64,000 bases of DNA from Hyphomicrobiaceae bacterium. Its GTDB lineage: Bacteria > Pseudomonadota > Alphaproteobacteria > Rhizobiales > Hyphomicrobiaceae. Made by a program: the position numbers and the translations under genes. The stretch lies in contig JABFRJ010000318.1 of NCBI GenBank assembly GCA_013141255.1, positions 1,053 through 65,052 on the forward strand, in the 5' to 3' direction. Shown one piece after another: positions 16,683 to 38,440 of this stretch. Under the pieces are notes generated by a model. That model did not search any database and was not told the origin of the DNA. It saw only the letters and a list, made by a program, of their open reading frames with translations. Position 1 is the first letter of the stretch, and each line of letters opens with the position of its first letter.

Positions 16683-16886
16683 AATCTTACTAAAGCTCCG
16701 CACGAAGACGATTTGCTGGCACCGCATACACTTTGTGAGTTGGCAGGTACAATACTTTGAAAGTCATCTGCAATGCTACATAACAGCACGACGACTGGAT
16801 CACTTTCTATATTAAGGGATAACACTTATCGTGATGCATCAGCATCAACAGATGCGTAGCAAATATCCACGTCACTATTGCGACAC

Positions 16887-18189: not shown

Positions 18190-19710
18190 GTGGTTTCCAC
18201 AATGTGGCAAAAAATTCAGAACAATTGGCAAGGCCTCTTACTGGCAACCGCCGCAGGCATTTTGCTTACTCAAGGCCTCCAAGCTCAGTCTCGACCTTCG
18301 AACGCACCGCATCGGATTGAAGATAGCGCCCGCCCGATTGGCCAACCAAGTCGGTTAGACATTGGTCGCGCTCAAACAACACTGGAACGGATCGCAACGG
18401 GTACAGCTAAGTCATTACCTCAGGCAACCACACGCCACAACTCAGACTTCAACAACAATTCGCCATTGATCGTCACTGAGGCCAAACCTGCCCCAGCAGG
18501 CAAAGTGGATGATGTGCGCTCCGCCCCGATTTCAGCCCCGGTTGTCGCCCCAACCGCAACAGTGCCCTCAGCGTCTATGGTCTCCGCAACATCGACGGCA
18601 TCCACTTCGACCGAACCATTGGACATTGCCGGCGCCGAGCGCATCAACATTAAATTCCAAGGCCAACCGGAGCTATCGGGCGACTACCGCGTCAATGATG
18701 ACCAAACGATTTCGGTGCCCGTCGTAGGACGAATGTCAATTGCTCGTCTCGACGCGGCCGCTCTTGAATTAGCTCTTGCAGATCGCGTATCGCGATTGAC
18801 CGGTCGCGAAGCCTACGTCACGGTCGAAGTCGCAGAGTATCGCCCCGTCTTCGTATCCGGCTACGTCAGCCGCCCCGGAACAGCGCCTTGGAAACCGGGC
18901 CTCACGGTTTTGCAAGCCATAACTATTGCTGGCGGCGACTTCCGCAGCAGCGCCTCAGGTGGCGATAACTTCAGCCTTCGTGTGCAGCGCGCAGTTGACG
19001 ATCAGAAACGCATCTTTGCTCAAGTCGCTCGCCTTGAGGCCGAACGAGCGGGTGCTACAAAAATCGCAATACCCGAGCGTCTGGTTGCTCGCGTAGGCAC
19101 TCAACAAGCCAAGGAACTGATCGACGCTCAAAACTCGGTCTTTGCCAGCCGCCGGAGTGCGTCGGACGCCCAAATCGCAGGCCTGGAACGCGCCATCGAT
19201 CTCACCAAAACTGAGTTTGAAGGCATGAGCTCTCAAAAGAAGCGGCTCGCCGAACAACTTGATGCACGAAGAGGACAACTGGCACGATTAAAAAGTGTCT
19301 ATGACAAAGGGCTTCTCCGCAACGATCGCCTTGTCGATGAGCAAATAAAAATGGCAGATCTTGAAGAAAAAATTGCGTCCGTCGGCGTCTCAACCGCTCG
19401 CGCCTCGAGCACTTTGGTTGGTCTCGAACGTGAACTCGCCAACGCTCGGCAAGATCGCAATGCTGCAATTGATGCTGAACTGCTAAAGCTCGAACGAGAT
19501 GTCGCCCAACTGGACCTCGAAATCCAGAGTCTCGGCGTGACATCGTCCAAACCGATTCTAACCAGCACCAGCAAGGACGGTAAGGACGGAAAAGATAGCG
19601 TGATTTATGAAATAGTACGTCAGGACCGCACTGGCCCGCGCACGATTGTAGCAGACCGTTATTCACTTTTGCGCCCGGGTGACATGGTCGTCGTCAGCAT
19701 GAAACAATAA
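18190..19710 (+). CDS. Outer-membrane polysaccharide export (OPX, Wza-like) protein with long internal coiled coil
   Basis: Signal peptide (LLLATAAGILLTQGLQAQS) and an S/A/P/T-rich linker. Poly_export plus SLBB segment (GDYRVNDDQTISVPVVGRMSIARL...YVTVEVAEYRPVFVSGYVSRPGTAPWKPGLTVLQAITIAGG). About 220 aa of heptad-like coiled coil, then a terminal beta-grasp-like tail (LLRPGDMVVVS). GTG at 18190 or ATG at 18202. Confidence 0.85.
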   Translation: MVSTMWQKIQNNWQGLLLATAAGILLTQGLQAQSRPSNAPHRIEDSARPIGQPSRLDIGRAQTTLERIATGTAKSLPQATTRHNSDFNNNSPLIVTEAKPAPAGKVDDVRSAPISAPVVAPTATVPSASMVSATSTASTSTEPLDIAGAERINIKFQGQPELSGDYRVNDDQTISVPVVGRMSIARLDAAALELALADRVSRLTGREAYVTVEVAEYRPVFVSGYVSRPGTAPWKPGLTVLQAITIAGGDFRSSASGGDNFSLRVQRAVDDQKRIFAQVARLEAERAGATKIAIPERLVARVGTQQAKELIDAQNSVFASRRSASDAQIAGLERAIDLTKTEFEGMSSQKKRLAEQLDARRGQLARLKSVYDKGLLRNDRLVDEQIKMADLEEKIASVGVSTARASSTLVGLERELANARQDRNAAIDAELLKLERDVAQLDLEIQSLGVTSSKPILTSTSKDGKDGKDSVIYEIVRQDRTGPRTIVADRYSLLRPGDMVVVSMKQ

Positions 19711-19794: not shown

Positions 19795-20847
19795 ATGAAA
19801 GCCAGTAAGTTAAAATTTCTGGAAACTGCAAAACGCACGGGCTTGTTCGATCTCGCTCGTCGACGCTCTTCCACTGGCGTGCGCATTTTAAATTATCACG
19901 GCATTTGGACGGGCTCGGACCCATACGCTGGCGACAGCATGTTTTTTACTGACACGGGCTTCACGCGTAGACTTGAGCTAATCAGAGCTTGGGGCTATCC
20001 GGTTGTATCGCTCGGCGATGCGATCGATCATTTGTCAGGCCAAAAAGCCATTCCCCCAAATGCCGTCGTCATAACAATCGACGATGGTTGGTACAGCAGC
20101 TACAAGGATATGTTTCCAAAGCTGCACCAACATGGAATGCCGTTTACACTATATTGCGACACAGGCCACCTCTACACTCCTGGCGTAATTCCCCACGTTG
20201 CTGCTATGTATTTTAAAATACTTGCGAACCAACGCAATGACCAATCAGAGCGAAACATCGCGCTCGAACGACCACTAAAGTCAGTCGCCACAGACCGCAG
20301 CCGGAGTTATGCCGAGCGTCTTGACGCTACGGAAAAATTGGCAAAACTACTCGGATTTGATTTCACGCGATACATGGCCGACAAGACTTTTCATTACATG
20401 TCACCATCAGAGCTGGTTGAAGCCGCAAGCAATCCAGATGTTTCCATTGAATTGCACACTCACAATCACACGCTACGTGATTGGAGCCGGAACGCAATCG
20501 AACAAGAAATTGCACTCAATCGAGCAGCGCTCGCCGATTTACTTAAACGACCACCAACTTCCTTTAAGCATTTTTGCTACCCCAGTGGGGCATACACGCC
20601 CGAAGCCGCAGAGATCATCAAATCGCTTGGGATAAAGAGTGCAACAACGACGAACCAAGGCATCGCCACAGTAGGCACTTCACTGCTCATGCTCCCACGT
20701 CTCTGTGACAACGAGATGCTCACAGAGATCGAATTTGAAGCTGAACTTTCGGGCTTTGCTGATTGGATGCGTCTTAGCCGCACGGTTGTTCCAAATTCAA
20801 AGGCACAATCGATAGGCACCACGCGATCAGCTTTTTGCCTAGCATAA
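19795..20847 (+). CDS. Polysaccharide deacetylase (NodB homology, CE4-like)
   Basis: NodB motifs VVITIDDGWYSSY and IELHTHNHT. 350 aa. Confidence 0.88.
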   Translation: MKASKLKFLETAKRTGLFDLARRRSSTGVRILNYHGIWTGSDPYAGDSMFFTDTGFTRRLELIRAWGYPVVSLGDAIDHLSGQKAIPPNAVVITIDDGWYSSYKDMFPKLHQHGMPFTLYCDTGHLYTPGVIPHVAAMYFKILANQRNDQSERNIALERPLKSVATDRSRSYAERLDATEKLAKLLGFDFTRYMADKTFHYMSPSELVEAASNPDVSIELHTHNHTLRDWSRNAIEQEIALNRAALADLLKRPPTSFKHFCYPSGAYTPEAAEIIKSLGIKSATTTNQGIATVGTSLLMLPRLCDNEMLTEIEFEAELSGFADWMRLSRTVVPNSKAQSIGTTRSAFCLA

Positions 20848-20868: not shown

Positions 20869-22470
20869 ATGAAGCTAATTGCGCTCCGAACGCGCTTTCG
20901 CAATCGGCCACATTGCAGTCTGGCACCTGCGGCAATCGCAATGTGCGTCGGACTACTGACGGTCATGGCACTGTACCCAGAGCCGATCACACCACTCGCG
21001 TTCGCCATACTCCCTATTGCTGGCCTCGCCTGCTACTATTTCCCGGTCCAAATTGTAATACTGGCAATCGCCGTTACTGTATTTCGAATTCACGAGGCCT
21101 ATCCATCTCTTCGCCCGACAAAGCTCCCGCTTGCCTTCGGCGCACTCGCGACGGCGACAATTTTTCTACACTTCGTTGTCTTAAGGACCGAACGGCCTTA
21201 TTGGAATCGCACCCTCACCTACTTCGCGATTTTACTCGGATGCATCTTACTCAGCGCAATATTCGCAGAAAGCCCAACACTATCGATCGATTTCGTTACG
21301 ATCTTATATTGGAAAATTATATTACTCGTCGTCGGCCTAGCCTGGCTCTTGCGCAGACCAGAGCATTTCGATTTTGCTGCCCGCATTTTCGTTCTAAGCG
21401 GCATCGCCCTCGCAGGTCGTGCAATCTATAACTGGATCAACAGTATTGCGCTAATCGAAGTTGGTCGCGTAACAATCGGCCCTGCTGATGCTCACTCAAA
21501 CATCGAGAACTGGTCAGACCCAACTGGCATGTTATCGACGTTGGGCGACTCTAACGATTTAGCGCTGTATCTAATTTTGCCGTTAAGTTTTGCCGTCGCC
21601 ATGGCGGTGACACGCAGCAGTCGCATGACAAACATCTTAGGCATTGCTGCATCCGCGGTCATTCTTCTCGCCATAATCATCACCCAAAGCTGCGGCGGCC
21701 TGCTGGGTGTTTCCGTTCTTTTCGGCACAATCATCTACACCGTTTCAAAATCCAAGGTCATGATACTCACAGCAATATGTGTAGGCGGCCTCGCCCTCTC
21801 GGCGGCAATCAGCTTCAGCCGTCACATCTCCAGTGTGACTGAATCCGCAATCGAGCGCGGCCTGGATGAAAGTACCCAAGGACGCATCGACAACTGGCTT
21901 ACATCTGTCTATATGGCGGTTAAACGACCTCAAGTTGGCGTTGGAATTAGCAATTTCATGGATAGTTACTACCGCTTTACCGATACTCCACGCCGCCGCG
22001 ACAAGGCCGTCCATAGCATCTGGTTTCAAGTGATAGGCGAACTTGGGTTTGTCGCTTTTGGCATCCTTGTTGCTATGTTCGCCACTTTGGTAAAAATGTC
22101 GACCACCAACCTCCAAATCCTCAAGTCTGTAAGTTCCGTGCCACCCAGTCTGCACGTGATAGGCATTGCCTCGATAGGCGCGCTCGCAGGCTTTATGGTT
22201 GCCCGCTCGTTCCTGACCCAAGCATTCAACTGGGCGCTGAACATCACTTTTGCGCTCCTAGTCGCCACAATACACGCCCTGCAGAAGTACGCCCCTTCTG
22301 ATGCGCAGAAGCTCAAACAAGCCTCAAATAAATCGACAACTCACTCCAAGTCATTTGTGTCCCATTTTACTTATTCCGATCCAAAATCGATCAATACAAA
22401 CAGTACCATTAAACAGACCGTTGCAACGCGAAGCCGCCCAAATTGGCCCACCAGCGCGTTGCCGCAATGA
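20869..22470 (+). CDS. O-antigen ligase-like / Wzy_C-domain membrane protein, paralog 1
   Basis: 533 aa and polytopic. Wzy_C signature AVHSIWFQVIGELGF. The conserved T-Q-S-R-G-G motif reads TQSCGG (Cys275, codon 21691-21693). Confidence 0.85.
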   Translation: MKLIALRTRFRNRPHCSLAPAAIAMCVGLLTVMALYPEPITPLAFAILPIAGLACYYFPVQIVILAIAVTVFRIHEAYPSLRPTKLPLAFGALATATIFLHFVVLRTERPYWNRTLTYFAILLGCILLSAIFAESPTLSIDFVTILYWKIILLVVGLAWLLRRPEHFDFAARIFVLSGIALAGRAIYNWINSIALIEVGRVTIGPADAHSNIENWSDPTGMLSTLGDSNDLALYLILPLSFAVAMAVTRSSRMTNILGIAASAVILLAIIITQSCGGLLGVSVLFGTIIYTVSKSKVMILTAICVGGLALSAAISFSRHISSVTESAIERGLDESTQGRIDNWLTSVYMAVKRPQVGVGISNFMDSYYRFTDTPRRRDKAVHSIWFQVIGELGFVAFGILVAMFATLVKMSTTNLQILKSVSSVPPSLHVIGIASIGALAGFMVARSFLTQAFNWALNITFALLVATIHALQKYAPSDAQKLKQASNKSTTHSKSFVSHFTYSDPKSINTNSTIKQTVATRSRPNWPTSALPQ

Positions 22471-22748: not shown

Positions 22749-24269
22749 ATGCCGCGCGCCGTCAACTACGACCCATCAGTATATCCCATCGCTCAGCATT
22801 ACAGCGCGTTAGCTGTTGCTGCGTGCTTCGCTGTCCTCACCGCGCTATATTTTGATCATTCCCCCCTCTCAATCGTCGCCGCGGCTGCGTTACCACTCGC
22901 TCTGCTTATAAGCATACAATCCCCAATTTTGGTTTGCGTGCTCTTTGTGTCAATCACGTTCTTTCGGATTCACGAGGCCTATCCGTTCCTAGAACCGCTA
23001 AAATTGCCGTTTGCATTCGGCTCGCTAATGTTCACGTCACTCGCTTTGCAGTGGCTAGTAATGGGTCGCATCGTCCCCTTTTGGATGCCAGAGTTACGAT
23101 ATCTAGTCGGGTTATTTGTATTGATCACAATCGGTGTCATTTTCGCAAAAAACCGTCAGGTTGCTTGGAACTTCTATAGCGACGTTTACTGGAAAATCGT
23201 TCTGGTTACATTCGCTGTCGCCTGGATCACGCGCACGACGGACGACTTCAACAAAATTTCCCGCATTCTTGTTTTGAGCGGAATCGCTATCGCCGCAGTC
23301 GCAATCTACAATAAAACCTACGGCATTGGCCTTGTCGAAGGCACACGCGTGACAATCGCACGCAAACCTCGTCGAGAAGAACTGGTCGGTGAGTTCGATC
23401 CCCTTGAGTCTGTTTCAACTCTTTCAGATCCTAACGATCTGGCGCTCATCCTTCTATTTCCACTCGCGTTTGCCATTTCAAGCTTGGTCTATCGCTCCGG
23501 CGTCATCAACACCGTTCTTGGATTAACCGGCACAGTAACGACCACGCTTGCAATTATCTTCACCCAAAGCCGTGGTGGTTTACTCGGAATTCTGGCAATT
23601 CTCGGCGTCATGGGATTGCGCACGATAAAATCGCGAACGGTCGTGATATCGCTAGGCGTGGCCGCTGCCCTCGGCCTAGCGGTTGCAATGGGTATCTCAA
23701 GCCGCGTCTCCGGCGGGGCCCAAGAAATCTCCGAAAGCGGTATTGACGACAGCTCACTCGGCCGCATCATTGCTTGGCGAGCCGCAATCGCCATGGCCGT
23801 AGCAAGGCCACTAAATGGCGTTGGTATTAACAACTTTATTGACAGTTACCACTTCTTTTCAGAAGTTCCCAATCGCCGAGAAAAAGCAGTACACAGCACG
23901 TGGTTTCAAGTTCTTGCCGAAACTGGCTTCCCCGGCTTCATCGTCTTTGTCACAATGCTCGTTATCACATTTAAAACAGCGATCGTTACTCTTATGCGAC
24001 TGAGCATCGCTCAAGCGCCACCGATACTGACAGCAACCGCGCTATCACTCGTTGCTGGTCTCGCCAGCTTTTGCGCAGCCGGTACGTTTCTAACGCAAGC
24101 CTTCACCCTACCGATTTATATCTTAATCGGCTTGACCGTTGCTCTATCGCGCGCATCAGAGCGACACCACAACAATCAATCATTAGACGACGTCTCTGTA
24201 CCATGGCACCCCACCCCTCCACTCCGTCCAATTTACCGCCATTTACCAACATTTGGTCGGCAAAAATAA
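22749..24269 (+). CDS. O-antigen ligase-like / Wzy_C-domain membrane protein, paralog 2
   Basis: 506 aa and collinear with paralog 1: FRIHEAYP, LVLSGIAIA, TQSRGGLLG (Arg275, codon 23571-23573), AVHSTWFQVLAETGF. Confidence 0.85.
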   Translation: MPRAVNYDPSVYPIAQHYSALAVAACFAVLTALYFDHSPLSIVAAAALPLALLISIQSPILVCVLFVSITFFRIHEAYPFLEPLKLPFAFGSLMFTSLALQWLVMGRIVPFWMPELRYLVGLFVLITIGVIFAKNRQVAWNFYSDVYWKIVLVTFAVAWITRTTDDFNKISRILVLSGIAIAAVAIYNKTYGIGLVEGTRVTIARKPRREELVGEFDPLESVSTLSDPNDLALILLFPLAFAISSLVYRSGVINTVLGLTGTVTTTLAIIFTQSRGGLLGILAILGVMGLRTIKSRTVVISLGVAAALGLAVAMGISSRVSGGAQEISESGIDDSSLGRIIAWRAAIAMAVARPLNGVGINNFIDSYHFFSEVPNRREKAVHSTWFQVLAETGFPGFIVFVTMLVITFKTAIVTLMRLSIAQAPPILTATALSLVAGLASFCAAGTFLTQAFTLPIYILIGLTVALSRASERHHNNQSLDDVSVPWHPTPPLRPIYRHLPTFGRQK

Positions 24270-24478: not shown

Positions 24479-25252
24479 ATGTCGCTGCTCGCAAACAAAG
24501 TCGCTAAATTGCGCCGGTGGGTCAAAAGCCAAGACTCCCCCGCAGCCAACGCAATCTACCGTATTGCCAAAGGCGCTCGTGGTATCTCCATTCCCTCGGT
24601 TCGTGCGATTCATTCGCCGCTCTATATGCTACATCGAGCAACGCAGATGGCATTTGCGAACGCTAAGCGCGCGATTTGGGTGACGCCACTCTTTCAATCA
24701 CAACTCCAAGCACCTGCGCCACGCCTCAATCTGTACGGGACACTACCCTTTATCCAGGGCAATGTGACAATGACGATTGGGGCCGATTGCCGGATCGGTG
24801 GTCGCACCAATTTCGCCGGTCGCACAGCCAGTCACCCTACGCCAGAAATTATCATTGGCAACAATTGCGACATTGGCTTCATGAATGTGCTCAGTTGCGG
24901 CAGCCGTATCCATATCGGCAACAACGTGCGGCTTGCGGCCTACGTCCAACTCGTCGGCTATCCGGGCCATCCCATTGACGTCGACGCCCGTGCTCTCGGC
25001 GCGCCCGATACCGACGATCAAGTCGGCGACATCATCCTTGAAGACGACGTATGGTTAGCGACACGCGTCACCGTTAATCGCGGCGTACGAATAGGTCGCG
25101 GAACCATTGTGGCAACCGGCAGCGTTGTCACTTCGGATCTCCCACCTTTCGTTCTCGCGGCGGGCATTCCAGCGCGGATTATCAAAAATTTACCTCAACC
25201 AAATACGCACGCGGCGCTGCCCACCAAAGCCTCAGCCCCACAAGCGGCATAA
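24479..25252 (+). CDS. Left-handed beta-helix (hexapeptide) O-acetyltransferase, WcaF/MAT-like
   Basis: Hexapeptide repeats across IGADCRIGGRTNF...IGNNCDIGFMNVL...IGNNVRLAAYVQL...LEDDVWLATRVTVNRGVRIGRGTIVATGSVV. Confidence 0.85.
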   Translation: MSLLANKVAKLRRWVKSQDSPAANAIYRIAKGARGISIPSVRAIHSPLYMLHRATQMAFANAKRAIWVTPLFQSQLQAPAPRLNLYGTLPFIQGNVTMTIGADCRIGGRTNFAGRTASHPTPEIIIGNNCDIGFMNVLSCGSRIHIGNNVRLAAYVQLVGYPGHPIDVDARALGAPDTDDQVGDIILEDDVWLATRVTVNRGVRIGRGTIVATGSVVTSDLPPFVLAAGIPARIIKNLPQPNTHAALPTKASAPQAA

Positions 25253-25285: not shown

Positions 25286-26515
25286 GTGCGTTCGTTATTC
25301 CTCACTACACGCCAATTTTGGCCTCTAGATACCGGTGGCAAGCTTCGAGATTTTCACCTCGCCCGTCAACTCGCCGCCCATGCGCAAGTTACTTACGTCT
25401 GCTTTCGAGACGGCAACGACACGTCTCCGTGCCCACCCGATCTTGCCGCACCTTTTGCACGCGTGATTGTTCTCGATCGCCCTCCGCAATACACAAAAAC
25501 TACACTCGTTCGTGGGCTCCTAAGTCGCCAGCCTGCCAATGTCATCAATTATACAACACGTGAGATGAGCAACGCGCTACGGCAGTTGTTCAACGAGCAA
25601 CGCTTCGACACCATTCAGGTCGAAAACGTGTTTATGTCGGGCTACATGCAGCTACTCCGCGACGCACCAGGGCACCCCCGCATCATTACGGATTGGCACA
25701 ACATAGAATCCGAACTTATGGCACGATATGCGGCCTTTATCCCAAATCCCGCCAAACGCTTCTATGCGAGTGAAACCGCGAGACGACTACGTTTTGCAGA
25801 AGCCGATCAAATCAGACTTTCCGACATCCTCCTCGTAACCTCAAGTCGCGAGCGCGATGCACTCGTTAAGCAAGGCGTCCACATTCCTATTCATATCGTC
25901 GAAAATGGTGTCGATGCGTCGCAATTTGAAAACATTGAACACCGCCAAGACAAGGCATCCGGTAAAGACAATCCAAATATCATCTTCGTTGGATCGATGG
26001 ACTATCACGCGAACGTGGACGCCGTACTTGAGTTTGTTACGGAAAGTTGGCCGACAATTCGCGCCGCTCAACCTGACCTAGATTTAAAAATAGTTGGACG
26101 CCGCCCCCCACCGTCTATTCAGGCCTTAGCCTCAAGGCCCGGCGTTATTGTCACTGGCAGCATTCCTGACGTCCGCCCCTTCTATCGTGGTGCCATTGCC
26201 TCCATAGTGCCCTTACGCATCGGCGGCGGCACACGTTTAAAAATTCTTGAAGCATTCGCAGCACGCACACCAGTCATATCGACCACATTAGGGGCCGAGG
26301 GCTTAGCAGCCCGTCACGACGAACATCTTTTAATTGCTGAAACCACCAGCGATTTTATTGCAGCGATCACAAAATTGCGTACCGACGCCAAGAAATGCAC
26401 GGCCTTGATCAATGCCGGTCATAGTCTCGTCAAATCAATCTACGATTGGCCTGTCGTTGGACGCGATCTAGGTGGCATCCACAATGCCGCACGTACTTCA
26501 TCTCGGGCAGCATAG
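25286..26515 (+). CDS. Glycosyltransferase family 4 (GT-B)
   Basis: GTG start. C-terminal GT1/GT4 pattern (IIFVGSMDYHANVDAV...IVPLRIGGGTRLKILEAFAARTPVISTTLGAEGL). Confidence 0.9.
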   Translation: MRSLFLTTRQFWPLDTGGKLRDFHLARQLAAHAQVTYVCFRDGNDTSPCPPDLAAPFARVIVLDRPPQYTKTTLVRGLLSRQPANVINYTTREMSNALRQLFNEQRFDTIQVENVFMSGYMQLLRDAPGHPRIITDWHNIESELMARYAAFIPNPAKRFYASETARRLRFAEADQIRLSDILLVTSSRERDALVKQGVHIPIHIVENGVDASQFENIEHRQDKASGKDNPNIIFVGSMDYHANVDAVLEFVTESWPTIRAAQPDLDLKIVGRRPPPSIQALASRPGVIVTGSIPDVRPFYRGAIASIVPLRIGGGTRLKILEAFAARTPVISTTLGAEGLAARHDEHLLIAETTSDFIAAITKLRTDAKKCTALINAGHSLVKSIYDWPVVGRDLGGIHNAARTSSRAA

Positions 26516-26530: not shown

Positions 26531-29500
26531 ATGACATATTTCTTACGGGTGCTTGCAGCTGTTGCTTTACTTGCATCAGCCATATCGGACGCGAAAGCTA
26601 TCGACCTTGGCGGCGGCGCGATGCCCGTTGCGTTCGAACCCAACAAGCCAATTTCCTTGCCAGCAGCGGGCGAAATTCGCATCGATGGCGTCGTAACGAG
26701 CCCTACACCAGTCACACTGATTTTGCGTATCGATGACGGACAGTCGACCAGTTATTCCTCAAGAATGAATGACGAACGCGGGCTCCCGCCGGGACCATTC
26801 TCACTACGATTTGATGTAGCAAATCTCCAAGCGTCGAATGGACGTCGCCTAAATCCAACAGACATCCGACGGGCCATTGTTTTCATCAATGGCGCAGGTA
26901 CAGGTCGCATAACTCGCTTCGATGTTGTGGAAAAAACATCTGCAGCGTCGGTCATCTCACCCAATCCCCAATCAGCGTCAACTCTCGTTGAGATCGGCAC
27001 GGGCTTTCTGCCAATTTCATTCGAACCGAAACAAACAGTAATGCTGCCTACAACGGGTGAAATCCGCATTGACGGCTTAAACACAGGCACCGCGCCGTTT
27101 AATCTCGTCATTCGAATCGACGACGCACTCTCATCCGATTACATGTCACGGATGAACGACGAACGATCAGTCGCACCAGGCCCCTTCTCACTGCGATTCG
27201 ATACAAGCCACTTAAAGGCAACAAATGGTCGCGTACTCGATCCGACCCGCATCATACGAGTAATTGCCTTCGTCAATGGCGATGGTGTCGGCACCGTCAC
27301 GCGATTCAACGCAGCTCCAAAAATTGGCCCAACGCCTGCGGCAACAACACGCCCGACCGCTCCCGAAACGCAAACAGTGGGTTCCACCGTCACCTTTGCG
27401 ACAGGTCCATTCCCAAGCGCATTCGAACCCGACCACCCCGTCGCATTGCCTCCGGCACAAACATTACAACTCGAAGGCACTATCGATAGCCCAACACCAG
27501 CTCTACTTGTACTACGCATCGACGATGGTCAATCAGTCGACTACGCGTCTCGCATGAACGATGAACGCGAAGTGCCACCCGGGCCCTTCTCGCTCGAGTA
27601 CGATACCAGCAACTTACGCGCAAAAAACGGGCGCGTGCTGAACCCAAGCGACATTAGACGCATCATCGCCTTTATAGATGGAGCGGGCAGTGGCACAATC
27701 ATGCGCTTTGCCGTTACCCCCAAAGCGAATACCACGTCGGCATCACACACCGACGCGGCAGCGCAACCAAGTTCGATCACAATCAAACCAGGCGAAGCAC
27801 GCGCATTTGGAAAAGGCCCGTTGCCTATAGTTTTTGAACCAGACCGCCCCGTGAGCCTGACAGCAACCCACGAACTACGCATCAATGGCACAATCTCAGG
27901 CCCCACCGCCGCAACACTGATACTACGCGTCGACGATGCAGAAACGACCGATTATCAATCACGCATGAATTTAGAACACGCCCTAAAGCCAGGGCCGTTT
28001 TCAATTCGGATCGATGTTGCCAACCTTAGAACAAGCAACGGACGATCCATCAAAGCGACTAACATTACGCGCGTGATAGCATTCATAAATGGATCAGGCA
28101 CCGCAATCGCTACCCGTTTCGATGTTGGACCAAAAGACGGCCCTGCCATCCCTTTGGCATCCTCCAGCACACCAGCAAAAAACAAATCTGCGAGCTCAAT
28201 CAAATCCGGCCCAAAACTGATCGGTCCGCAAACCTTGTCGACCGGAACACTACCGATAAAGTACGATCCATCCACGCCAGTCGCGTTTGGTGACGCCGAT
28301 GAAATTCGCGTCGAGGGCTTCAACGACGGTAAAGAGCCAGCAGCAGTTGCGCTCCGCATTGATGACGGTCAATCCAGCGGCTATCCATCACGCTTCAATG
28401 ACGAGCGCATGCTTCCGCCTGGACCATTCAAGTTACGTATCGGCCTCAAAGGCTTAAAAGCGCCTAGTGGTCGCATACTTGACCATGGCGACATCAGACG
28501 CATTCACTTGTTCCCATGGCAAGGATCTCCCAACGTCCGTATTGTCAAATTTGAAACGGGTCGAGGCCGAACGCTGCCGTTGGGCGCAACGGGCTACGCC
28601 CTTGGTGCAGACAATGCTCCTCTGCACCCCGGCTTCGAACGAATTGCGCCAGGCGATCAACGCATTGGTGCGCGTGGCACAACCGAGGCAATTCGTAGAC
28701 CTGCACCCGATCCGCTTGTCGCCAATGGCTTGCGCGGCATTCGTACATTGACACTTCTGGCACCAAAAGGTCGTGTTCGCGTAACCATCTGGAGCGAAGA
28801 TCCTGGCGAATGGGAAGAACTGCCGCGCGAGTTTGAACGCCGCATTCGCGTCAATGGCAAAGATGCCTGGATCCATAAGATGTCCGCTGACCAATGGATA
28901 TCAGAGCGCTACCTTCGCGGCTCTAAAACCGAGCACTCAACCACAGACGATGCTTGGACAGCTTATGGAAAGCATCGCGGCAATAGGCGTTGGCTCGATG
29001 TCGACGCCCCCAAAGGAACTGTCGTCATAGAGCTTTCAGGCGCCGAAGCATCGGCATATTACCTATCAGCCGTCTTGATCGAACCCGCGCCGACGAATAC
29101 ATCTGACAAGACAGAATCGCCTAGCCAAGCATTAGTCGAGACCCAACGCGCTGAGTGGTATCAATCCAACTATCCCGTAGCTGAGTACAAAATCGGCAAC
29201 AACGACGGCGGCACGCCAATCGCATTACACTGGTCAGACGCGACCCAATCAAGAACTGCACCAATTACCATTAAAACCGCCCCCGACAGCGGTGCGGGCA
29301 TCCGCCTTGACGTGACCTCCGATGCAACACTCGAAAAGCCACGCATCACCATTACCCCTCCAATCCGTGCCAACGAACAGATCCCAACTACGATCTGGGC
29401 ATCCGAACTGCGCCTCGAACGCGACAGTACTGTTCTAAAACTGACTGACAATCGTTTGATTGCCGACACTACGTTGCGGCCCCTCAAAGCCAACAACATG

Positions 29501-30604
29501 CGCAGTTACGAACTCTGGTTTGACATCGCCAAAGGCTCACCACCGGGTGCCTATCTCGGTTATGTGACCTTTTACAACGGCAAACGCGAAATACGGATCC
29601 CCATCGAGATCACCGTTCTCGCAGTCGAACTACCTCTGCCCTCCAAACCGTCCGGCTTCTACCTCGCGCGAGCGCCACATCTCAGCTATTTCCCCGGTCT
29701 CGCTATTGCGCGCGACCAACAACTTGGCTGCGATTTAGAGTTCATGCGACGCTTCGGACTTTCCAATACCGCTCCGCCCATTGCCGGGCTAGATCGGCAA
29801 GATTTGACTGTCTTCGGAACCGATATGCGTCGCCCAGGTGGCGGTGGCGCACAGGTGACTCCAGGGTGGCTGATTTACAATCCCTTGGTCGAACTCCACA
29901 AACGCCACGGATCAAATCGGGGCGCGGAAATTGTCGCGAGATTAGAAACAATGATCAAAGCGGCAGCACTCCCACAACCGCTATGGAGCGTGGCAGACGA
30001 ACCATCAAATCCTGACCAAACCCCAGGTGAACTCGACCAATGGGTAAAGGCGCTTCGCGCCGCAAGCCCCGGCATTAAACTCGCGGGTCACCTAAACACG
30101 CCAAAAGATGATCGTTACGCGCCGCTCTTTGACACCCTTATAATTAATCAAGCGTTTGGTATTGAGGCTGCCAACATCTCCAAGTATACGAAGTCGGGCA
30201 ACAAAGTCTGGCTCTATAACACCTTCGCTCATCGCTTGACGGCCGGACACTGGCTCTGGAACACGCCTGCTGAGCGCTATGTCCAATGGCACGCGCGCAT
30301 GCCAACCGCCGACCCGTTCGACCCCATAGACGGCCGTGAGGCCGATTTTCAGGTCATTTATCCCACTGCACAAGTTTGCCCAAAAACGCCTGACATTAAC
30401 CGCGATTTATTGCGCTTGGCAGAGGGCGTTGTTGATCAGCGATGGCTACTTTGGCTTGAACACCAACCAACACGCAAAGCCCGCCAATTAACGGCAGAGT
30501 TGCGTACACTTTTTGCAGGGAGCTTTGAAAAGGTGCAAAAAACGTCGCGAACTGACCTTATCGAGATCAGAAACCGGATCATGGATGTGTTCGGATCACC
30601 ATGA
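26531..30604 (+). CDS. Large secreted protein: signal peptide, 5 tandem uncharacterised ~130-143-aa domains, and a C-terminal glycoside-hydrolase-like module
   Basis: 1357-aa ORF with AGAGG 5 nt upstream of the ATG. Signal peptide MTYFLRVLAAVALLASAISDAKA. See the repeat feature and findings for the domain structure. The C-terminal part contains an Ig-like segment (YELWFDIAKGSPPGAYLGYVTFYNGKREIRIPIEITV) and a barrel-like segment with WSVADEPSNP. Confidence 0.9.
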   Translation: MTYFLRVLAAVALLASAISDAKAIDLGGGAMPVAFEPNKPISLPAAGEIRIDGVVTSPTPVTLILRIDDGQSTSYSSRMNDERGLPPGPFSLRFDVANLQASNGRRLNPTDIRRAIVFINGAGTGRITRFDVVEKTSAASVISPNPQSASTLVEIGTGFLPISFEPKQTVMLPTTGEIRIDGLNTGTAPFNLVIRIDDALSSDYMSRMNDERSVAPGPFSLRFDTSHLKATNGRVLDPTRIIRVIAFVNGDGVGTVTRFNAAPKIGPTPAATTRPTAPETQTVGSTVTFATGPFPSAFEPDHPVALPPAQTLQLEGTIDSPTPALLVLRIDDGQSVDYASRMNDEREVPPGPFSLEYDTSNLRAKNGRVLNPSDIRRIIAFIDGAGSGTIMRFAVTPKANTTSASHTDAAAQPSSITIKPGEARAFGKGPLPIVFEPDRPVSLTATHELRINGTISGPTAATLILRVDDAETTDYQSRMNLEHALKPGPFSIRIDVANLRTSNGRSIKATNITRVIAFINGSGTAIATRFDVGPKDGPAIPLASSSTPAKNKSASSIKSGPKLIGPQTLSTGTLPIKYDPSTPVAFGDADEIRVEGFNDGKEPAAVALRIDDGQSSGYPSRFNDERMLPPGPFKLRIGLKGLKAPSGRILDHGDIRRIHLFPWQGSPNVRIVKFETGRGRTLPLGATGYALGADNAPLHPGFERIAPGDQRIGARGTTEAIRRPAPDPLVANGLRGIRTLTLLAPKGRVRVTIWSEDPGEWEELPREFERRIRVNGKDAWIHKMSADQWISERYLRGSKTEHSTTDDAWTAYGKHRGNRRWLDVDAPKGTVVIELSGAEASAYYLSAVLIEPAPTNTSDKTESPSQALVETQRAEWYQSNYPVAEYKIGNNDGGTPIALHWSDATQSRTAPITIKTAPDSGAGIRLDVTSDATLEKPRITITPPIRANEQIPTTIWASELRLERDSTVLKLTDNRLIADTTLRPLKANNMRSYELWFDIAKGSPPGAYLGYVTFYNGKREIRIPIEITVLAVELPLPSKPSGFYLARAPHLSYFPGLAIARDQQLGCDLEFMRRFGLSNTAPPIAGLDRQDLTVFGTDMRRPGGGGAQVTPGWLIYNPLVELHKRHGSNRGAEIVARLETMIKAAALPQPLWSVADEPSNPDQTPGELDQWVKALRAASPGIKLAGHLNTPKDDRYAPLFDTLIINQAFGIEAANISKYTKSGNKVWLYNTFAHRLTAGHWLWNTPAERYVQWHARMPTADPFDPIDGREADFQVIYPTAQVCPKTPDINRDLLRLAEGVVDQRWLLWLEHQPTRKARQLTAELRTLFAGSFEKVQKTSRTDLIEIRNRIMDVFGSP
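26609..28558 (+). repeat. Intragenic tandem repeat: five diverged copies of a ~390-430-bp (130-143-aa) coding unit
   Basis: Repeat anchors are FEP at aa 35, 164, 298 and 435, and YDP at aa 578. Shared motif: FEPxxPxxLP..EIRIDG...LxLRIDDGQSxxYxSRMNDERxxPPGPFSLRFDxxNLxAxNGRxLxPxDIRRxIAFINGxGxGxIxRF. Approximate cores are 26621-26926, 27008-27313, 27410-27715, 27821-28126 and 28250-28558. Copies 1-4 are roughly 50-60 percent identical by eye, and copy 5 is more diverged. Confidence 0.85.
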
Positions 30605-30753: not shown

Positions 30754-32172
30754 GTGAAGGTAAATCTGGCAGAAGACCTCAAGTATATCATTGAGGTTGT
30801 GTGGAGACGCCGTCGGCTCCTAATACTTCCACTTGCGATCCTACTTCCGTTAACGATAGCAGCATCATATTTTCTGCCCCGAACCTACGCGAGTCGTGCT
30901 CTTTTAATCATGCAAGAACAGGGGTCCGACAACCCGCTGATGAAGACACAGACTTCAACTGAACGCATCCGCGAACGTGCGCCCGGTCTCCAGGCCTTGC
31001 TGAAAAGCGAGCGCGTCTTATTGAACGCGTTGCGCGACATTAAAGGCGAGGACATGCCCACCGACCCTCGAGCCATCGCACTCGAACTCCAAGACCTCGA
31101 CAAGCAATTGTCGTTCGAAATGGTCGGTTCCGATTTTTTGGACATCCAGCTCAAAGGCGCAAAATCGGTAGGTCTCGGTCGTCAACTTGAAGCCATTACG
31201 TCTCGCTTTCTCGAAAGCATGCTGACGCCCGATCAGGACGCCATGAGCGCGACGCAGGTGCTACAAGACAAGCGCAAAGAAGATGTGGTTACAGCCGAAA
31301 AGGCACTCGCCAAGTTCAAGGATCAGATCGGCGAGCGCACGTTGGCCGCTATTGCCGCAAGTCAAAAACGAGTTGCTGAAGTCGGCTCAAACACCAATCG
31401 CGTCGAAGCTGATATAGCGGCAACGACGACCGACATTGAACAACTCAAAAAATCAATTGGAATAACAGCGGACACCCGTCCTGAAGCCGCGATGGAGGGA
31501 TTACTCCGCCAAGGCAACGTCGAAATTCTCGAACTAGAAAAGCGCGGAGCTGCAGGTGCACCGCTTATCGAGCGCGCACGGTCAAAGCTTGTGGCACTCC
31601 GTCGCATCCAAGCTCAGGAGGCACGCTTCGCCGATCTTCAGCGCGAGCTTAATGAGGTCAAACGCCTCGTGGTCGATAGCCAAAGAGCAGCAACCGATGC
31701 GCGAACCCCTGAAGGACAGCTGCGACGCCTCGAAAAGGACCTTGCGGAAGCAAAGATACAATTCGAAACATATCTTCGCCGTTTCCCATCAGCTACCAGC
31801 AGCCGCTCGCTACAGGTATTGCGTGCGCCGGAACGCATCCGCGTCATCGACGCCCCTCGAGACCCCGAGTTCCCTTTAACATCGCGCCTTAAGTATATCC
31901 TCGCAGGTGCGGTTGCCGCACTTCTGCTTTCAGTCGGGCTCGCAGCAAGCGCCGAAGCACTCGATCAACGCGTACGACGCGCACGGGATTTCGAGAACAT
32001 CACCGGCCTACCTGTGGTCGCTCGATTGCCAGCCGCCATTCCAGAGCCAGTTGTCCTCGACGAGTTTCAAGAACCGGTGCCTTCGCCCCAGAAAAAAGCA
32101 TCTTGGAAAGGCAATGGCAGCTTATCAAATCTGCCAATCCTTCCGGTTAAGCCGCATCAAAGCGCAGCATAA
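30754..32172 (+). CDS. Polysaccharide co-polymerase / chain-length determinant (Wzz/GumC family) without kinase domain
   Basis: GTG start with GAGGA upstream. N-terminal Wzz motif with TM1 (RRRRLLILPLAILLPLTIAASYFLPRTYAS), a long periplasmic coiled coil and TM2 (YILAGAVAALLLSVGLAASAEAL). It ends with a ~75-aa tail and has no Walker motifs. Confidence 0.85.
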   Translation: MKVNLAEDLKYIIEVVWRRRRLLILPLAILLPLTIAASYFLPRTYASRALLIMQEQGSDNPLMKTQTSTERIRERAPGLQALLKSERVLLNALRDIKGEDMPTDPRAIALELQDLDKQLSFEMVGSDFLDIQLKGAKSVGLGRQLEAITSRFLESMLTPDQDAMSATQVLQDKRKEDVVTAEKALAKFKDQIGERTLAAIAASQKRVAEVGSNTNRVEADIAATTTDIEQLKKSIGITADTRPEAAMEGLLRQGNVEILELEKRGAAGAPLIERARSKLVALRRIQAQEARFADLQRELNEVKRLVVDSQRAATDARTPEGQLRRLEKDLAEAKIQFETYLRRFPSATSSRSLQVLRAPERIRVIDAPRDPEFPLTSRLKYILAGAVAALLLSVGLAASAEALDQRVRRARDFENITGLPVVARLPAAIPEPVVLDEFQEPVPSPQKKASWKGNGSLSNLPILPVKPHQSAA

Positions 32173-32351: not shown

Positions 32352-32816
32352 ATGCCGCGGCTCCGCCTCATCGCACTTGACCCTGACGACCTGACTGTGC
32401 TCGGCACCCATCTGCAAGACTCAGTGGCAAAACTGAGTAATATGACTTACCGCCCGCAAGACCGCCGCTTTATTGCCCTCGTCAATCGTTTCGCTTGGGA
32501 TCACACCACCTCAAACGCGGCGCGCAATGACGAATTTGAGCGCCGCCGCGCGGCGCTCCGCATTGAACGCGTCGCAAGAGCTCAAGTGTCCGGGCTCAAT
32601 TTAATGCGTCCAGATACGATTGTGTCCATCCTAACAGTAACTTTTACCCCTGATAGTGACACAGCCAAATCACCGGCAGGTGTCCTGACGATGCACTTTT
32701 CAGGTGGCGCTGCAATCCGACTGGACGTCGAGTGCCTCGAAATGATGCTGGAAGATCTAGGCCCAACCTGGAAGGCAAAAACCCAGCCACATCACTCAGA
32801 AAATATCCCAGAATAA
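32352..32816 (+). CDS. DUF2948 family protein
   Basis: PRLRLIALDPDDLTVLGTHLQDSVAKLSNMTYRPQDRRFIALVNRFAWD. Sits immediately upstream of hisD, the conserved position in Rhizobiales. Confidence 0.85.
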   Translation: MPRLRLIALDPDDLTVLGTHLQDSVAKLSNMTYRPQDRRFIALVNRFAWDHTTSNAARNDEFERRRAALRIERVARAQVSGLNLMRPDTIVSILTVTFTPDSDTAKSPAGVLTMHFSGGAAIRLDVECLEMMLEDLGPTWKAKTQPHHSENIPE

Positions 32817-32945: not shown

Positions 32946-34244
32946 ATGGCGCAAGACTTCGATATCCGCGCGGTTGACTTTGAACAACAGTTCGACCTGT
33001 TCCTCGCCAGCAAACGGGAAAATGCGCCCGAAGTGGATGCGACAGTCCGCGAAATTTTAACCAATGTTCGCACACGCGGTGATGCTGCAGTCATAGAATA
33101 CACGCAAAAGTTTGACCGCTTAGATGTCGCTAACAACCGCATGCGTGTCACCGCGACCGAAGTCGATTATGCACTATCGATTTGCAATCGCGAGACACTT
33201 ACGGCCCTTCACTTTGCCCATGACCGCATCGTCAGCCATCATCAGCGCCAACGTCCAAAGAATGACCAATACCGCGATGCGACAGGTGCCGAACTGGGCA
33301 GTCGCTGGACAGCTGTCGAAAGTGTGGGGTTATATGTGCCAGGCGGCACGGCCAGTTACCCAAGCTCCGTACTGATGAATGCGGTGCCCGCCAAAGTCGC
33401 GGGCGTTCCGCGTATTGTAATGATGGTTCCGAGCCCCAGTGGAGATCTGAATCCGTTAGTTCTTGCGGCAGCGCACATCGCAGGCGTTGAAGAAATTTAT
33501 CGCATAGGTGGCGCACAAGCCATCGCTGCGCTCGCCTATGGTACAGAGACAATCAGACCGGTTGTTAAGATTGTAGGGCCTGGCAATGCCTTCGTCGCCG
33601 CCGCCAAACGCCAAGTATTCGGAATTGTCGGCATCGACAGTATCGCAGGCCCGTCCGAGGTCTTGATCATTGCAGACAAAGACAACAATCCAGCATGGAT
33701 CGCCGCAGATCTATTGGCACAAGCCGAGCATGATGCATCAGCGCAGTCCATATTGATCACCGATAACGAAGCATTCGCAATTGCCGTCAAACAGGCTGTG
33801 ACCGAACAACTCACAGTTCTCCCGCGCGGCAACATCGCGGCTCAAAGCTGGAATACATTCGGTGCTGTTATTTTAGTGCCTAGTTTGGACGCAGCCATTC
33901 CGCTGGCAGATCGAATTGCACCTGAACATCTCGAAATCGCAACTGCAAATCCAGAGCAACTCAGCGACAAAATCCGCAATGCCGGAGCAATATTCCTCGG
34001 CAAGCACACGCCTGAGGCTATCGGCGATTATGTCTCAGGCTCCAATCACGTCCTACCAACAGCTCGATCCGCACGCTTTTCATCAGGCCTAGGCGTCCTA
34101 GACTTCATGAAACGAACCTCACTGCTAAAGCTCGATGCTAATGCTCTGACTGCACTTGGCCCCTCGGCACAAACTTTGGCGCGCGCTGAAGGACTAGAAG
34201 CTCACTGCAAATCAATTTCCATTCGCCTCGGAGACCGCACATGA
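32946..34244 (+). CDS. hisD: Histidinol dehydrogenase
   Basis: 432 aa with motifs GLYVPGGTASYPSSVLMNAVPAKVAGV, AGPSEVLIIAD, AQAEHD and GDYVSGSNHVLPT. Confidence 0.97.
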   Translation: MAQDFDIRAVDFEQQFDLFLASKRENAPEVDATVREILTNVRTRGDAAVIEYTQKFDRLDVANNRMRVTATEVDYALSICNRETLTALHFAHDRIVSHHQRQRPKNDQYRDATGAELGSRWTAVESVGLYVPGGTASYPSSVLMNAVPAKVAGVPRIVMMVPSPSGDLNPLVLAAAHIAGVEEIYRIGGAQAIAALAYGTETIRPVVKIVGPGNAFVAAAKRQVFGIVGIDSIAGPSEVLIIADKDNNPAWIAADLLAQAEHDASAQSILITDNEAFAIAVKQAVTEQLTVLPRGNIAAQSWNTFGAVILVPSLDAAIPLADRIAPEHLEIATANPEQLSDKIRNAGAIFLGKHTPEAIGDYVSGSNHVLPTARSARFSSGLGVLDFMKRTSLLKLDANALTALGPSAQTLARAEGLEAHCKSISIRLGDRT

Positions 34245-34907: not shown

Positions 34908-35126
34908 ATGGCTAAAGAAGAACTACTCGAGTTTCCGGGCATCGTTTCGGAGCTACTGCCGAACGCTACTTTTCGCGTCAAGCTCGAGAACGGTCACGAA
35001 ATCATCGCCCATACAGCGGGTAAAATGCGCAAAAACCGCATTCGCGTCCTTGCAGGCGACAAAGTTTTAGTCGAAATGACGCCCTATGACCTCACCAAAG
35101 GCCGCATTACTTACCGCTTTAAGTAG
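34908..35126 (+). CDS. infA: Translation initiation factor IF-1
   Basis: [72 protein letters not shown], 72 aa. The longer ORF-track start at 34791 is an upstream extension. Confidence 0.97.
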
Positions 35127-35829
35127 GACCGACAGTCCTCGTCGTGAAACATTACGACAAGAACTGGCCCGACAAAAGCAATCAGCCGACGCCAAACCCC
35201 GCGCCAAGCTAGTCTTAGCGAGTGCTTCGCCGCGTCGACTGACGCTGCTGGCGCAAGTTGGCATCGAACCTGACGCACTGCGGCCCTCGTCAATCGACGA
35301 GTCGCCGAAGCGAGGCGAGATGCCACGCTCATTGATTCAACGCCTAGCTCGCGCCAAGGCAGAAGAAGCGCGCAATCAAATCGCCAATGATCGCGACATT
35401 GCCAATGCTTACGTGCTCGCGGCCGATACGATCGTCGCAGTGGGCCGCCGAATCCTCGTCAAACCCAAATACGTCGAAGAAGCCGTCGCCTCACTGGAAC
35501 GACTGTCAGGGCGCACCCATCGTGTTTTAACGTGCGTCTGCCTGATTACACCTGACGATCGCGTCCGCCTCAAAATTGTCGACACCCGCGTGCGTTTCAA
35601 ACGCCTCTCACGCGAAGAAATCGATAGTTACATTGCGTCTCGCGAATGGCGCGACAAGGCCGGAGGATACGCAATCCAAGGCCTCGCAGGTGCCTTCGTG
35701 CAGAAAATCGTTGGATCTTACAGCAATGTTGTTGGGCTACCCTTGGCCGAAGTCGTGGCCATGCTGTCAGGCGAAGGTGTCCCGGTCTATTTTAATTGGC
35801 TAAAGGCTGGCGACGGTAGCAACGACTAA
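35086..35829 (+). CDS. maf: Maf-like nucleoside triphosphate pyrophosphatase (septum formation protein Maf)
   Basis: Maf core from [20 protein letters not shown] through [10 protein letters not shown]...VGLPL. The ATG at 35086 overlaps infA by 41 nt. The true start may be a downstream non-ATG codon, so the 5' end is uncertain. Confidence 0.85.
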
Positions 35830-37995: not shown

Positions 37996-38440
37996 GACAG
38001 GCTGTGCGGTCGAACTATTCTCAAAAACTATGATGGATCTTCCCCGCCGAAGTCGACACTAAGTCGACCATGCCCAAGCGCCAAGTTGTCCCCGTTATCC
38101 TCATTTGGTTCCACAAAATAATTGTTCCTTCAATCTGGGCGGGACACGTTGTGACCCAGAAGTTATAGCGTCATCCGAATAAACCAAGAATGATTCGCAC
38201 GAGCATGCGAATTGACGCACAAATTCACCTAAACCGTCAACAAGCCATCACTCGACACTCACAACCCAGGCAAAAATGCCCGTAAAACAATGAAACATGT
38301 AAGAGTTGGGGCAAGTAACATCACAAACGCCTGTCGTCTTTCCGACTTGCAATACTTGGTTCCATTAATCGTAGAACAACATCGTCCTTATCACCCACAG
38401 CTTTTGAACCTGAAAGTCAGCGCCTGTCTTGGAGTTCAGT

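Follow-up and report, generated by a model that had tools for sequence, protein, structure and literature searches.

A predicted exported GH123-like glycosidase with five tandem CBM-like repeats encoded in a syp-like exopolysaccharide cluster of a Hyphomicrobiaceae bacterium

Several exopolysaccharide (EPS) operons encode a glycoside hydrolase (GH), as exemplified by PslG (GH39), PelA (GH166), BcsZ (GH8), the C-terminal domain of PgaB (GH153), and Sph3/Ega3, which is presumed to trim or release the operon's own polymer or to control its quality. The published 18-gene syp locus contains no hydrolase (PMC6420764). In GH123-type enzymes, an adjacent Asp-Glu pair provides the acetamido stabilizer and the acid/base of a substrate-assisted catalysis (PMC11087588). 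Here, we analyzed a 64,000-nucleotide (nt) stretch of Hyphomicrobiaceae bacterium DNA (assembly GCA_013141255.1, contig JABFRJ010000318.1, positions 1,053 to 65,052 of the forward strand), hereafter called the window, which contains a gene for a 1357-aa protein identical to NOU06754.1 of NCBI, where it is named 'hypothetical protein'. This protein is composed of a signal peptide, five repeats (R1–R5) resembling carbohydrate-binding modules (CBMs), an extra β-rich domain, and a GH123-like module (Table 1). With slightly better than even confidence, we take it to be an exported EPS-processing hydrolase of the β-N-acetylhexosaminidase type, which carries a multivalent CBM array and forms part of the surrounding EPS operon. 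It resembles PslG, PelA, BcsZ, PgaB, and Sph3/Ega3 in being a glycoside hydrolase encoded in, and conserved with, a polysaccharide synthesis and export cluster, but differs from them in its GH123-like module, in an unusual N-terminal array that comprises 1–6 CBM-like modules across the family, and in its Wzy-dependent, syp-like context.

A preliminary description of this gene was silent on the C-terminal ~670 aa, the GH123-like glycosidase. We modeled this region together with R5 by AlphaFold2 (AF2), using an alignment of 79 sequences (A2) that also served for the conservation counts. The model (predicted local distance difference test, pLDDT, 92.9; predicted template modeling score, pTM, 0.93) arranged R5, the β-rich domain, a second β-sandwich, a (β/α)8 barrel, and a helical tail in this order. 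Its top 20 Foldseek matches in the PDB were all GH123 or GH123-like (E 6.9e-19 to 7.4e-13, target-normalized template modeling score (TM) 0.50–0.62), of which BvGH123 (5L7R, 6.9e-19) was the best, followed by NgaDssm, NgaAt, NgaCa, CpNga123, 8P4L, NgaP2, and NgaLy. The next fold after the GH123 type was GH2 at E 2.7e-9, ten orders of magnitude from the best GH123 match. In this predicted structure, the C-terminal ~670 aa are shown to fold like GH123-type β-N-acetylhexosaminidases and to keep the adjacent Asp-Glu. The order of folds is the same as in the described GH123 and GH123-like enzymes (BvGH123 5L7R, CpNga123 5FQE, NgaCa 8K2F, NgaDssm 8K2J, NgaAt, NgaP2, NgaLy; PMC11087588), in which the Asp-Glu motif likewise follows the end of a W-x-x-A strand and the EVW-x-YN and RW-x-WL regions are colinear. 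The A2 profile aligned colinearly but weakly (E 0.008–0.45) with 8k2f, 8k2j, 5l7r, and 5fqe, and the family motif W-S-x-A-D-E-P fell on the ADE of NgaCa (8k2f) and the ADEP of NgaDssm (8k2j). D1156-E1157 is hence the probable positional equivalent of the GH123-type DE motif. Support for the N-terminal β-sandwich of the GH123 type also came from weak PF22680 matches in relatives. In contrast to these likenesses, sequence identity to GH123 enzymes is 10–14%, and PF13320 (GH123_cat) gave no match to the window protein at E<=1, while relatives scored 13.5–22.3 bits against a gathering cutoff of 23.1 (best P0171, 22.3). The target further differs from GH123 enzymes in ~330 extra upstream residues (R5 and the β-rich domain), with as many as five further CBM-like modules in front of them, and in being encoded inside an EPS biosynthesis operon.

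Conservation in this region is high. Of the 79 sequences, 78 retain D1156 and 78 retain E1157; ~25 further barrel residues are conserved in at least 90% of the sequences, and ten barrel positions are invariant (79/79). C1067 and C1283 are also invariant (79/79) and, if joined by a disulfide bond, would be in keeping with export. The N-terminus, MTYFLRVLAAVALLASAISDAKA followed by IDL, looks by eye like a Sec signal peptide, which together with the two cysteines points to export. The preliminary description had suggested a multivalent glycan-binding or matrix-scaffolding array; on this reading, the protein would be a non-enzymatic multivalent lectin or matrix scaffold with a C-terminal part that binds but is catalytically dead. 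An array of five putative binding modules might indeed link polymer chains to one another, and the window protein lacks an above-threshold Pfam catalytic-domain match; however, conservation of the Asp-Glu pair and of the ~25 barrel residues is unexpected in a degenerate pseudo-enzyme, and most family members possess one repeat only, with which they are unable to cross-link. We consider such a scaffold very improbable. Glycan binding is still the most plausible role of the repeats, judging from their CBM/lectin fold and their CBM_11/Agarase_CBM homologues, but the array is the N-terminal appendage of a GH123-like hydrolase.

The five diverged tandem repeats reported after the signal peptide were confirmed. 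Their FEP/YDP anchors are located at aa 35, 164, 298, 435, and 578, giving the periods of 129, 134, 137, and 143 aa that had been described, and delimitation with a hidden Markov model (HMM) yielded five cores of ~111 aa in the window protein; the RIDD and PGPF motifs likewise each occur five times. The start of the array at 26609 agreed with the first estimate, but its end had been placed at 28558 (aa 676), ~5 aa before the end of R5. Pairwise BLASTP between the copies gave E-values of 1e-23 to 4e-50; core identity was 50–60% among R1–R4, as estimated earlier for all copies, but 36–49% against R5. Whole-unit identity including the linkers was 33–54%. The inter-repeat linkers are 18–32 aa in length, with a P/T/S/A content of 56–70%. 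Third-codon-position identity between copies was 0.24–0.40, and Tandem Repeats Finder detected no array at the DNA level in the target gene. From these two observations, the duplications in the window gene are judged ancient, with the protein sequence evidently maintained, as had been proposed; recent DNA-level slippage was ruled out as the origin of the repeats by the empty Tandem Repeats Finder output and the saturated third-codon identity. The β-rich domain between R5 and the GH123-type sandwich was confidently modeled and holds highly conserved RRPxPDP and EDPGEWE motifs. Neither this domain, the GH123-type sandwich, nor the barrel is a degenerate repeat copy, for which hhalign probabilities were 0.3–2.4%.

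The preliminary description left the repeat domain unrecognized, which held with respect to curated sequence families. Scanned at full length against Pfam and NCBIfam, the window protein gave no match at E<=1, and 62 repeat instances searched against Pfam at E<=10 indicated no consistent family; PF03425 (CBM11) and PF17992 (Agarase_CBM) matched 0/62 of them. FN3-like Pfam matches were single and at chance level (1/62 instances each), and membership in the Big, cadherin, FN3, or PKD families was not found. Sequence searches of the PDB, using phmmer with the protein and using the repeat profile, gave chance-level matches only (variant surface glycoprotein, VSG, and S8 peptidases, E ~0.06–1). The fold was recognizable, however. 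An AF2 model of one repeat, based on the alignment of the 62 repeat sequences (A1), formed a compact seven-strand β-sandwich with pLDDT 96.3 and pTM 0.87. Its best Foldseek match in the PDB was the N-terminal CBM-like domain of GH50 exo-β-agarases (4BQ3, 6XJ9, 5Z6P; E 1.6e-4, query TM 0.72), followed in order by the laminarin-binding CBM X584, by CBM61, CBM30, CBM11, and the hyaluronan-binding CBM70, and by many galectins. The entries 4bq3, 6xj9, 8qx6, 2xom, 1wzx, 6r3m, and 4d0q all matched with probability 1.00 (E 1.6e-4 to 1e-2). Among predicted viral structures, the repeat model matched tail fibers and CBM-bearing proteins. The repeat is hence CBM-like, and its match to an established family is at the fold level. 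Existing annotation does not cover it: for every orthologue looked up (six clusters), the NCBI name was 'hypothetical protein', and the UniRef name of several orthologues, 'Glycoside hydrolase 123 C-terminal domain-containing protein', refers to the GH123 part only.

Homologues of the repeat also point to the CBMs. The A1 profile gave 623 matches at E<=1e-3 among 1.84 billion representative proteins, most of which carry the GH123-like module. Three remote relatives (P0124, P0139, and P0150; E 3e-18 to 1e-15) contain two or three domains each with the signature lRiDD-S-Y-sRfN-E...pG...id...i..i.lF, and these domains are assigned by Pfam to CBM_11 (30–43 bits, above threshold) or Agarase_CBM, with 26–43 bits overall. 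In P0150 (1704 aa), three signature domains accompany a GH42-type β-galactosidase module, so that the repeat domain occurs on at least two glycosidase classes, GH123-like and GH42-type, which argues for CBM-like behavior. Another relative, P0148 (1176 aa), consists of an Acyl_transf_3 (OafA-type) membrane acyltransferase (aa 14–331), one repeat, and the GH123-like module, and this fusion suggests a functional link of polysaccharide acylation with the GH123-like hydrolase. The β-sandwich fold is common to the repeat and to CBM11 (PF03425), the Agarase_CBM of GH50 Aga50D (PF17992, 4BQ3), and CBM30, which are of the β-jelly-roll type-B kind, and the Pfam models of the former two score the remote repeat homologues on the same domains. 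The repeat is shorter than these domains, however (~111 aa vs ~170–180 aa), and has an invariant signature of its own, R-I-D-D...S..Y.SR.N.ER...PGPF...GR. It fits best within the CBM11/agarase-CBM-like β-jelly-roll group, as a short and divergent branch, for which we infer putative sugar binding from the fold and the remote homologues.

The repeats might alternatively be mainly structural, forming a semi-rigid or metal-stabilized stalk, or a protein or cell-surface adhesion array, that keeps the hydrolase at a distance or anchors it and binds no polysaccharide. Such a role would fit a copy number that varies freely from 1 to 6 next to an unchanged catalytic part, as in stalk-type repeat proteins; metal coordination or a network of salt bridges is conceivable for the invariant D-D, N-x-E, and R residues, and the fold matches are only moderate. 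Nevertheless, the protein has no membrane or cell-wall anchor, since its signal peptide is cleavable and without lipobox and a C-terminal sorting signal is absent, and its linkers are flexible PTSA segments instead of rigid junctions. The fold matches are, moreover, enriched in CBMs and lectins, with Ig, FN3, and cadherin folds not leading in the Foldseek lists, and the signature domain found on the GH42-type enzyme is there a CBM_11/Agarase_CBM according to Pfam. We therefore regard a mainly structural role as unlikely and prefer carbohydrate binding. The signature residues R40, D42, D43, S46, Y49, R52, N54, E56, R57, P61–F64, G78, and R79 (R1 numbering) are equally conserved in the enzyme-proximal and the extra copies, which suggests that all copies probably retain the same activity. 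Strand periodicity would place R40/D42 and R52/N54/E56 on one outer face of neighboring strands, an arrangement that would suit the binding face of a type-B CBM.

The number of repeats is the variable part of this family. A C-terminal region of 660–690 aa is constant in 30 close homologues and in the wider set, while the N-terminal repeats vary from 1 to 6. Among 111 full-length relatives, one copy was found in 77, two in 14, three in 8, four in 7, five in 4, and six in 1, and the ancestral and commonest state is one copy, not five. When 80 repeat instances were clustered, the enzyme-proximal copy made one orthologous group that included the sole copy of the one-repeat proteins, and the extra copies of the closest clade (P0001–P0013) made a second group. 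Independent expansions were observed in P0017, P0014/15, P0019, P0026, and P0027. In P0017 (L002 10001–14293, JGI metagenome 3300076031), which has six repeats, r3 and r4 are 94% identical, and repeats 3/4 are 85–86% identical to repeat 5. The identity of the former two copies indicates that array expansion is ongoing or recent in some lineages, in contrast to the ancient copies of the window protein; recent slippage, rejected for the window gene, does apply to P0017. A scan of GTDB species genomes detected 196 loci in Hyphomicrobiales, Rhodospirillales, Neomegalonema, and Gammaproteobacteria, the last including Enterovibrio, Grimontia, Aeromonas, Plesiomonas, Sedimenticola, and Endozoicomonas.

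Table 1. Coordinates of the target gene, its domains, and the neighboring EPS genes within the window
Feature	Position	Strand	Basis
Whole coding sequence, 1357 aa: signal peptide, five CBM-like modules, extra β domain, GH123-like glycosidase	26531..30604	+	Open reading frame (ORF) list
Sec-type signal peptide, aa 1–23; cleavage motif AKA/ID, no lipobox Cys	26531..26599	+	Sequence reading only
R1, aa 27–137, β-sandwich CBM-like module	26609..26941	+	HMM delimitation, AF2 model, Foldseek CBM matches
R2, aa 156–266	26996..27328	+	HMM delimitation, BLASTP
R3, aa 290–400	27398..27730	+	HMM delimitation, BLASTP
R4, aa 427–537	27809..28141	+	HMM delimitation, BLASTP
R5, aa 570–681, catalytic-module-proximal subtype, orthologous to the single copy of one-repeat relatives	28238..28573	+	Clustering of 80 repeat instances; modeled with the C-terminal module
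Extra β-rich domain, aa ~687–852	28589..29086	+	AF2 secondary structure; no Pfam match
β-Sandwich, GH123 N-terminal domain, aa ~895–1029	29213..29617	+	Profile alignments to 8k2f, 8k2j, 5l7r, 5fqe N-domains; Foldseek
(β/α)8 barrel and C-terminal helical region, aa ~1041–1355	29651..30595	+	AF2 model, Foldseek, sub-threshold PF13320 in relatives
Candidate catalytic pair Asp1156-Glu1157 in WSVADEPSNPD (acetamido stabilizer and acid/base)	29996..30001	+	Translation, conservation, alignment
STAS protein (SypA-like)	16260-16727	-	Pfam/NCBIfam scans
Glycosyltransferase (GT), GT4	16887-17921	-	Pfam/NCBIfam scans
Wza-like exporter	18190-19710		Pfam/NCBIfam scans
Polysaccharide deacetylase, carbohydrate esterase family 4 (CE4)	19795-20847		Pfam/NCBIfam scans
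Two Wzy_C proteins	20869-22470, 22749-24269		Pfam/NCBIfam scans
Hexapeptide acetyltransferase	24479-25252		Pfam/NCBIfam scans
Glycosyltransferase, GT4, TIGR03087-like, 15 nt upstream of the target gene	25286..26515	+	Pfam/NCBIfam scans
Wzz-like / XrtA-type chain-length determinant (SypO-like), downstream of the target gene	30754..32172	+	Pfam/NCBIfam scans

The location in a polysaccharide locus noted at the outset was borne out by the GT, exporter, Wzy_C, and Wzz-like neighbors (Table 1). In gene content and order, the cluster appears to resemble the syp/scv/rbd loci of Vibrionaceae, the putative counterparts being the STAS protein (SypA-like), exporter (SypC-like), Wzy_C protein (SypL), hexapeptide acetyltransferase (SypM), GT (SypN), and Wzz-like membrane protein (SypO) (PMC6420764, PMC8941931). 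It differs from syp in the GH123-like gene inserted beside the sypO-like gene, and adds the CE4 deacetylase and two Wzy_C paralogues. These paralogues (O-antigen ligase/polymerase-like, TIGR03097-like) are adjacent in one cluster, and most related loci show one tblastn region for both. No flippase, priming transferase, or SypE/F/G-like gene was identified among the scanned ORFs of the window (7.2–39.7 kb). An XrtA/PEP-CTERM locus was also considered and rejected: several neighbors matched TIGR03087, TIGR03097, TIGR03007, and TIGR03027, but none of these matches reached its curated cutoff, and neither an exosortase nor a PEP-CTERM protein turned up. Directly downstream, a DUF2948 protein (32352-32816) and histidinol dehydrogenase (32946-34244) mark the end of the cluster; farther downstream lie Maf (35086-35829), an enoyl-CoA hydratase (36907-37995, minus strand), and a protein with an extensin-like C-terminal domain (38429-39718). 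Over the window (1-64000), GC skew is negative in all 2-kb bins (-0.07 to -0.23) and AT skew mostly positive; the plus strand is C- and A-rich throughout, though most long ORFs listed at 8–45 kb are on this strand.

Related loci show the same association. The homologous contigs L001–L003 have the same neighborhood, with a GT gene directly upstream that overlaps the hydrolase gene by 4 nt, and also carry SypE-like (HATPase_c_2-REC-SpoIIE) and SypG-like (sigma-54 response regulator) genes. These regulator genes are located at 437-1948 and 17272-18678 of L001 and at 384-1898 of L002. The STAS gene at the edge of the window cluster and the SypE-like and sigma-54 regulator genes of the relatives suggest regulation by partner switching, of the kind known from syp loci. 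Homologues of the target occur almost always in syp-like EPS clusters, in both Alpha- and Gammaproteobacteria; within 10 kb of the hydrolase gene, a Wzz-like gene was found in 67 of 83 related loci, an acetyltransferase gene in 58, Wzy_C in 42, and GT4 in 34, and the Wzz-like gene usually adjoins the hydrolase gene. In Enterovibrio norvegicus (L057), the order is GT, flippase, an ORF without Pfam match at the place of sypL, DUF4114, acetyltransferase, GT, Wzz-like, hydrolase gene, GT4, GT2, and Bac_transf. A comparison with Table 4 of PMC6420764 showed that this is the published sypJ–sypR order apart from the DUF4114 protein, with the hydrolase gene placed between the sypO-like and sypP-like genes. 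The DUF4114-domain protein is encoded at L057 4970-5965, between the flippase/sypL-like region and the acetyltransferase. On the basis of gene content and order, we regard the target gene as an accessory gene that is conserved in syp-like EPS clusters. As for the polymer, the window CE4 gene and the GlmS-like and epimerase genes adjoining the Methylocystis homologue are a hint of an N-acetylhexosamine (HexNAc)-containing product, which would suit a substrate-assisted enzyme of β-hexosaminidase type.

These genomic data bear also on whether the enzyme is instead a foraging or competitive glycosidase, directed to foreign HexNAc glycans such as host glycoconjugates or the matrix or wall of other microbes, and merely co-located with EPS genes. 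Characterized GH123-type enzymes do act on exogenous glycoconjugates (PMC11087588), and secreted enzymes with multiple CBMs are typical of polysaccharide foraging. Yet the gene lies inside the operon, 15 nt after the GT gene, and no terminator was found in the 150-nt gap between it and the Wzz-like gene; this operon position is kept across two proteobacterial classes, and the window scans located no HexNAc transporter or catabolic genes nearby. A foraging function is accordingly thought quite improbable, and processing of the cluster's own EPS is preferred.

For an EPS-processing hydrolase, the following mechanism can be proposed. R5, which is universally present, would be an integral part of the enzyme, as in Aga50D, and would probably extend its substrate-binding surface; the pTM of 0.93 obtained for R5 modeled with the catalytic part is consistent with this, and a contact of R5 with the barrel and surface exposure of the signature residues would belong to the same picture. 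The four extra copies, held on flexible Pro/Thr/Ser/Ala linkers, may give multivalent polymer binding, leading to higher avidity or to a matrix tether. Every copy would bind the HexNAc-containing EPS of its own cluster through a conserved polar and aromatic surface, for which R-x-D-D, S, Y, R-x-N-x-E-R, PGPF, and G-R are the predicted residues. The barrel would then cut β-HexNAc linkages, so that the EPS is trimmed, released, or remodeled, as with PslG, PelA, BcsZ, and PgaB.

Several points weigh against this proposal. Structural matches to the repeat are modest (E ~1e-4, TM 0.6–0.73, root-mean-square deviation 4–7 Å), and small β-sandwiches match promiscuously. The window protein and its repeats match no curated family. 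The sequence link to the GH123 structures is sub-threshold, so that the assignment of the DE pair rests on weak alignments together with the fold. Characterized GH123-type enzymes act on glycoconjugate oligosaccharides, not on polymers (PMC11087588). Furthermore, the syp locus in its canonical Vibrio/Aliivibrio form functions although it lacks such a gene (PMC6420764), which indicates that the hydrolase is not essential to the syp-type pathway.

Glycosidases that carry CBM arrays and EPS operons that include a hydrolase are both already known, and the present finding extends this knowledge and does not overturn it. What is new is a repeat family with a sharp signature, a deeply divergent GH123-like clade, and recurrent expansions from 1 to 6 copies; the repeat domain is assigned to no Pfam or NCBIfam family and, as far as tested, to none of the CAZy type. 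The association of the hydrolase gene with syp-like clusters is also new and unreported. In our literature search, no paper joined DUF4091 with biofilm, the combination of GH123 and exopolysaccharide retrieved only Sumida 2024, and papers on syp-like loci made no mention of such a hydrolase.

A bolder idea, to which we attach little credence, is that the repeat founds a new CBM family for syp-type polysaccharide and that its copy number (1–6, repeatedly expanded) acts as a tunable ruler or tether, which beside the Wzz-like chain-length determinant would fix the cleavage site of the GH123-like module on the nascent polymer. If true, this would constitute a hydrolase-based mechanism of chain-length control or release for Wzy-dependent EPS, and syp-type polysaccharides would contain cleavable β-HexNAc linkages. 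More generally, the gene marks a widespread accessory component of syp-like biofilm-polysaccharide clusters, including those of the culturable Enterovibrio, Grimontia, Aeromonas, Nisaea, and Methylocystis. If the enzyme indeed cuts its own EPS, it would open a first chemical access to syp-type polysaccharides, which are poorly defined and for which it predicts β-HexNAc linkages, and would provide a candidate biofilm-dispersal reagent as well as a new CBM family clearly marked by its signature.

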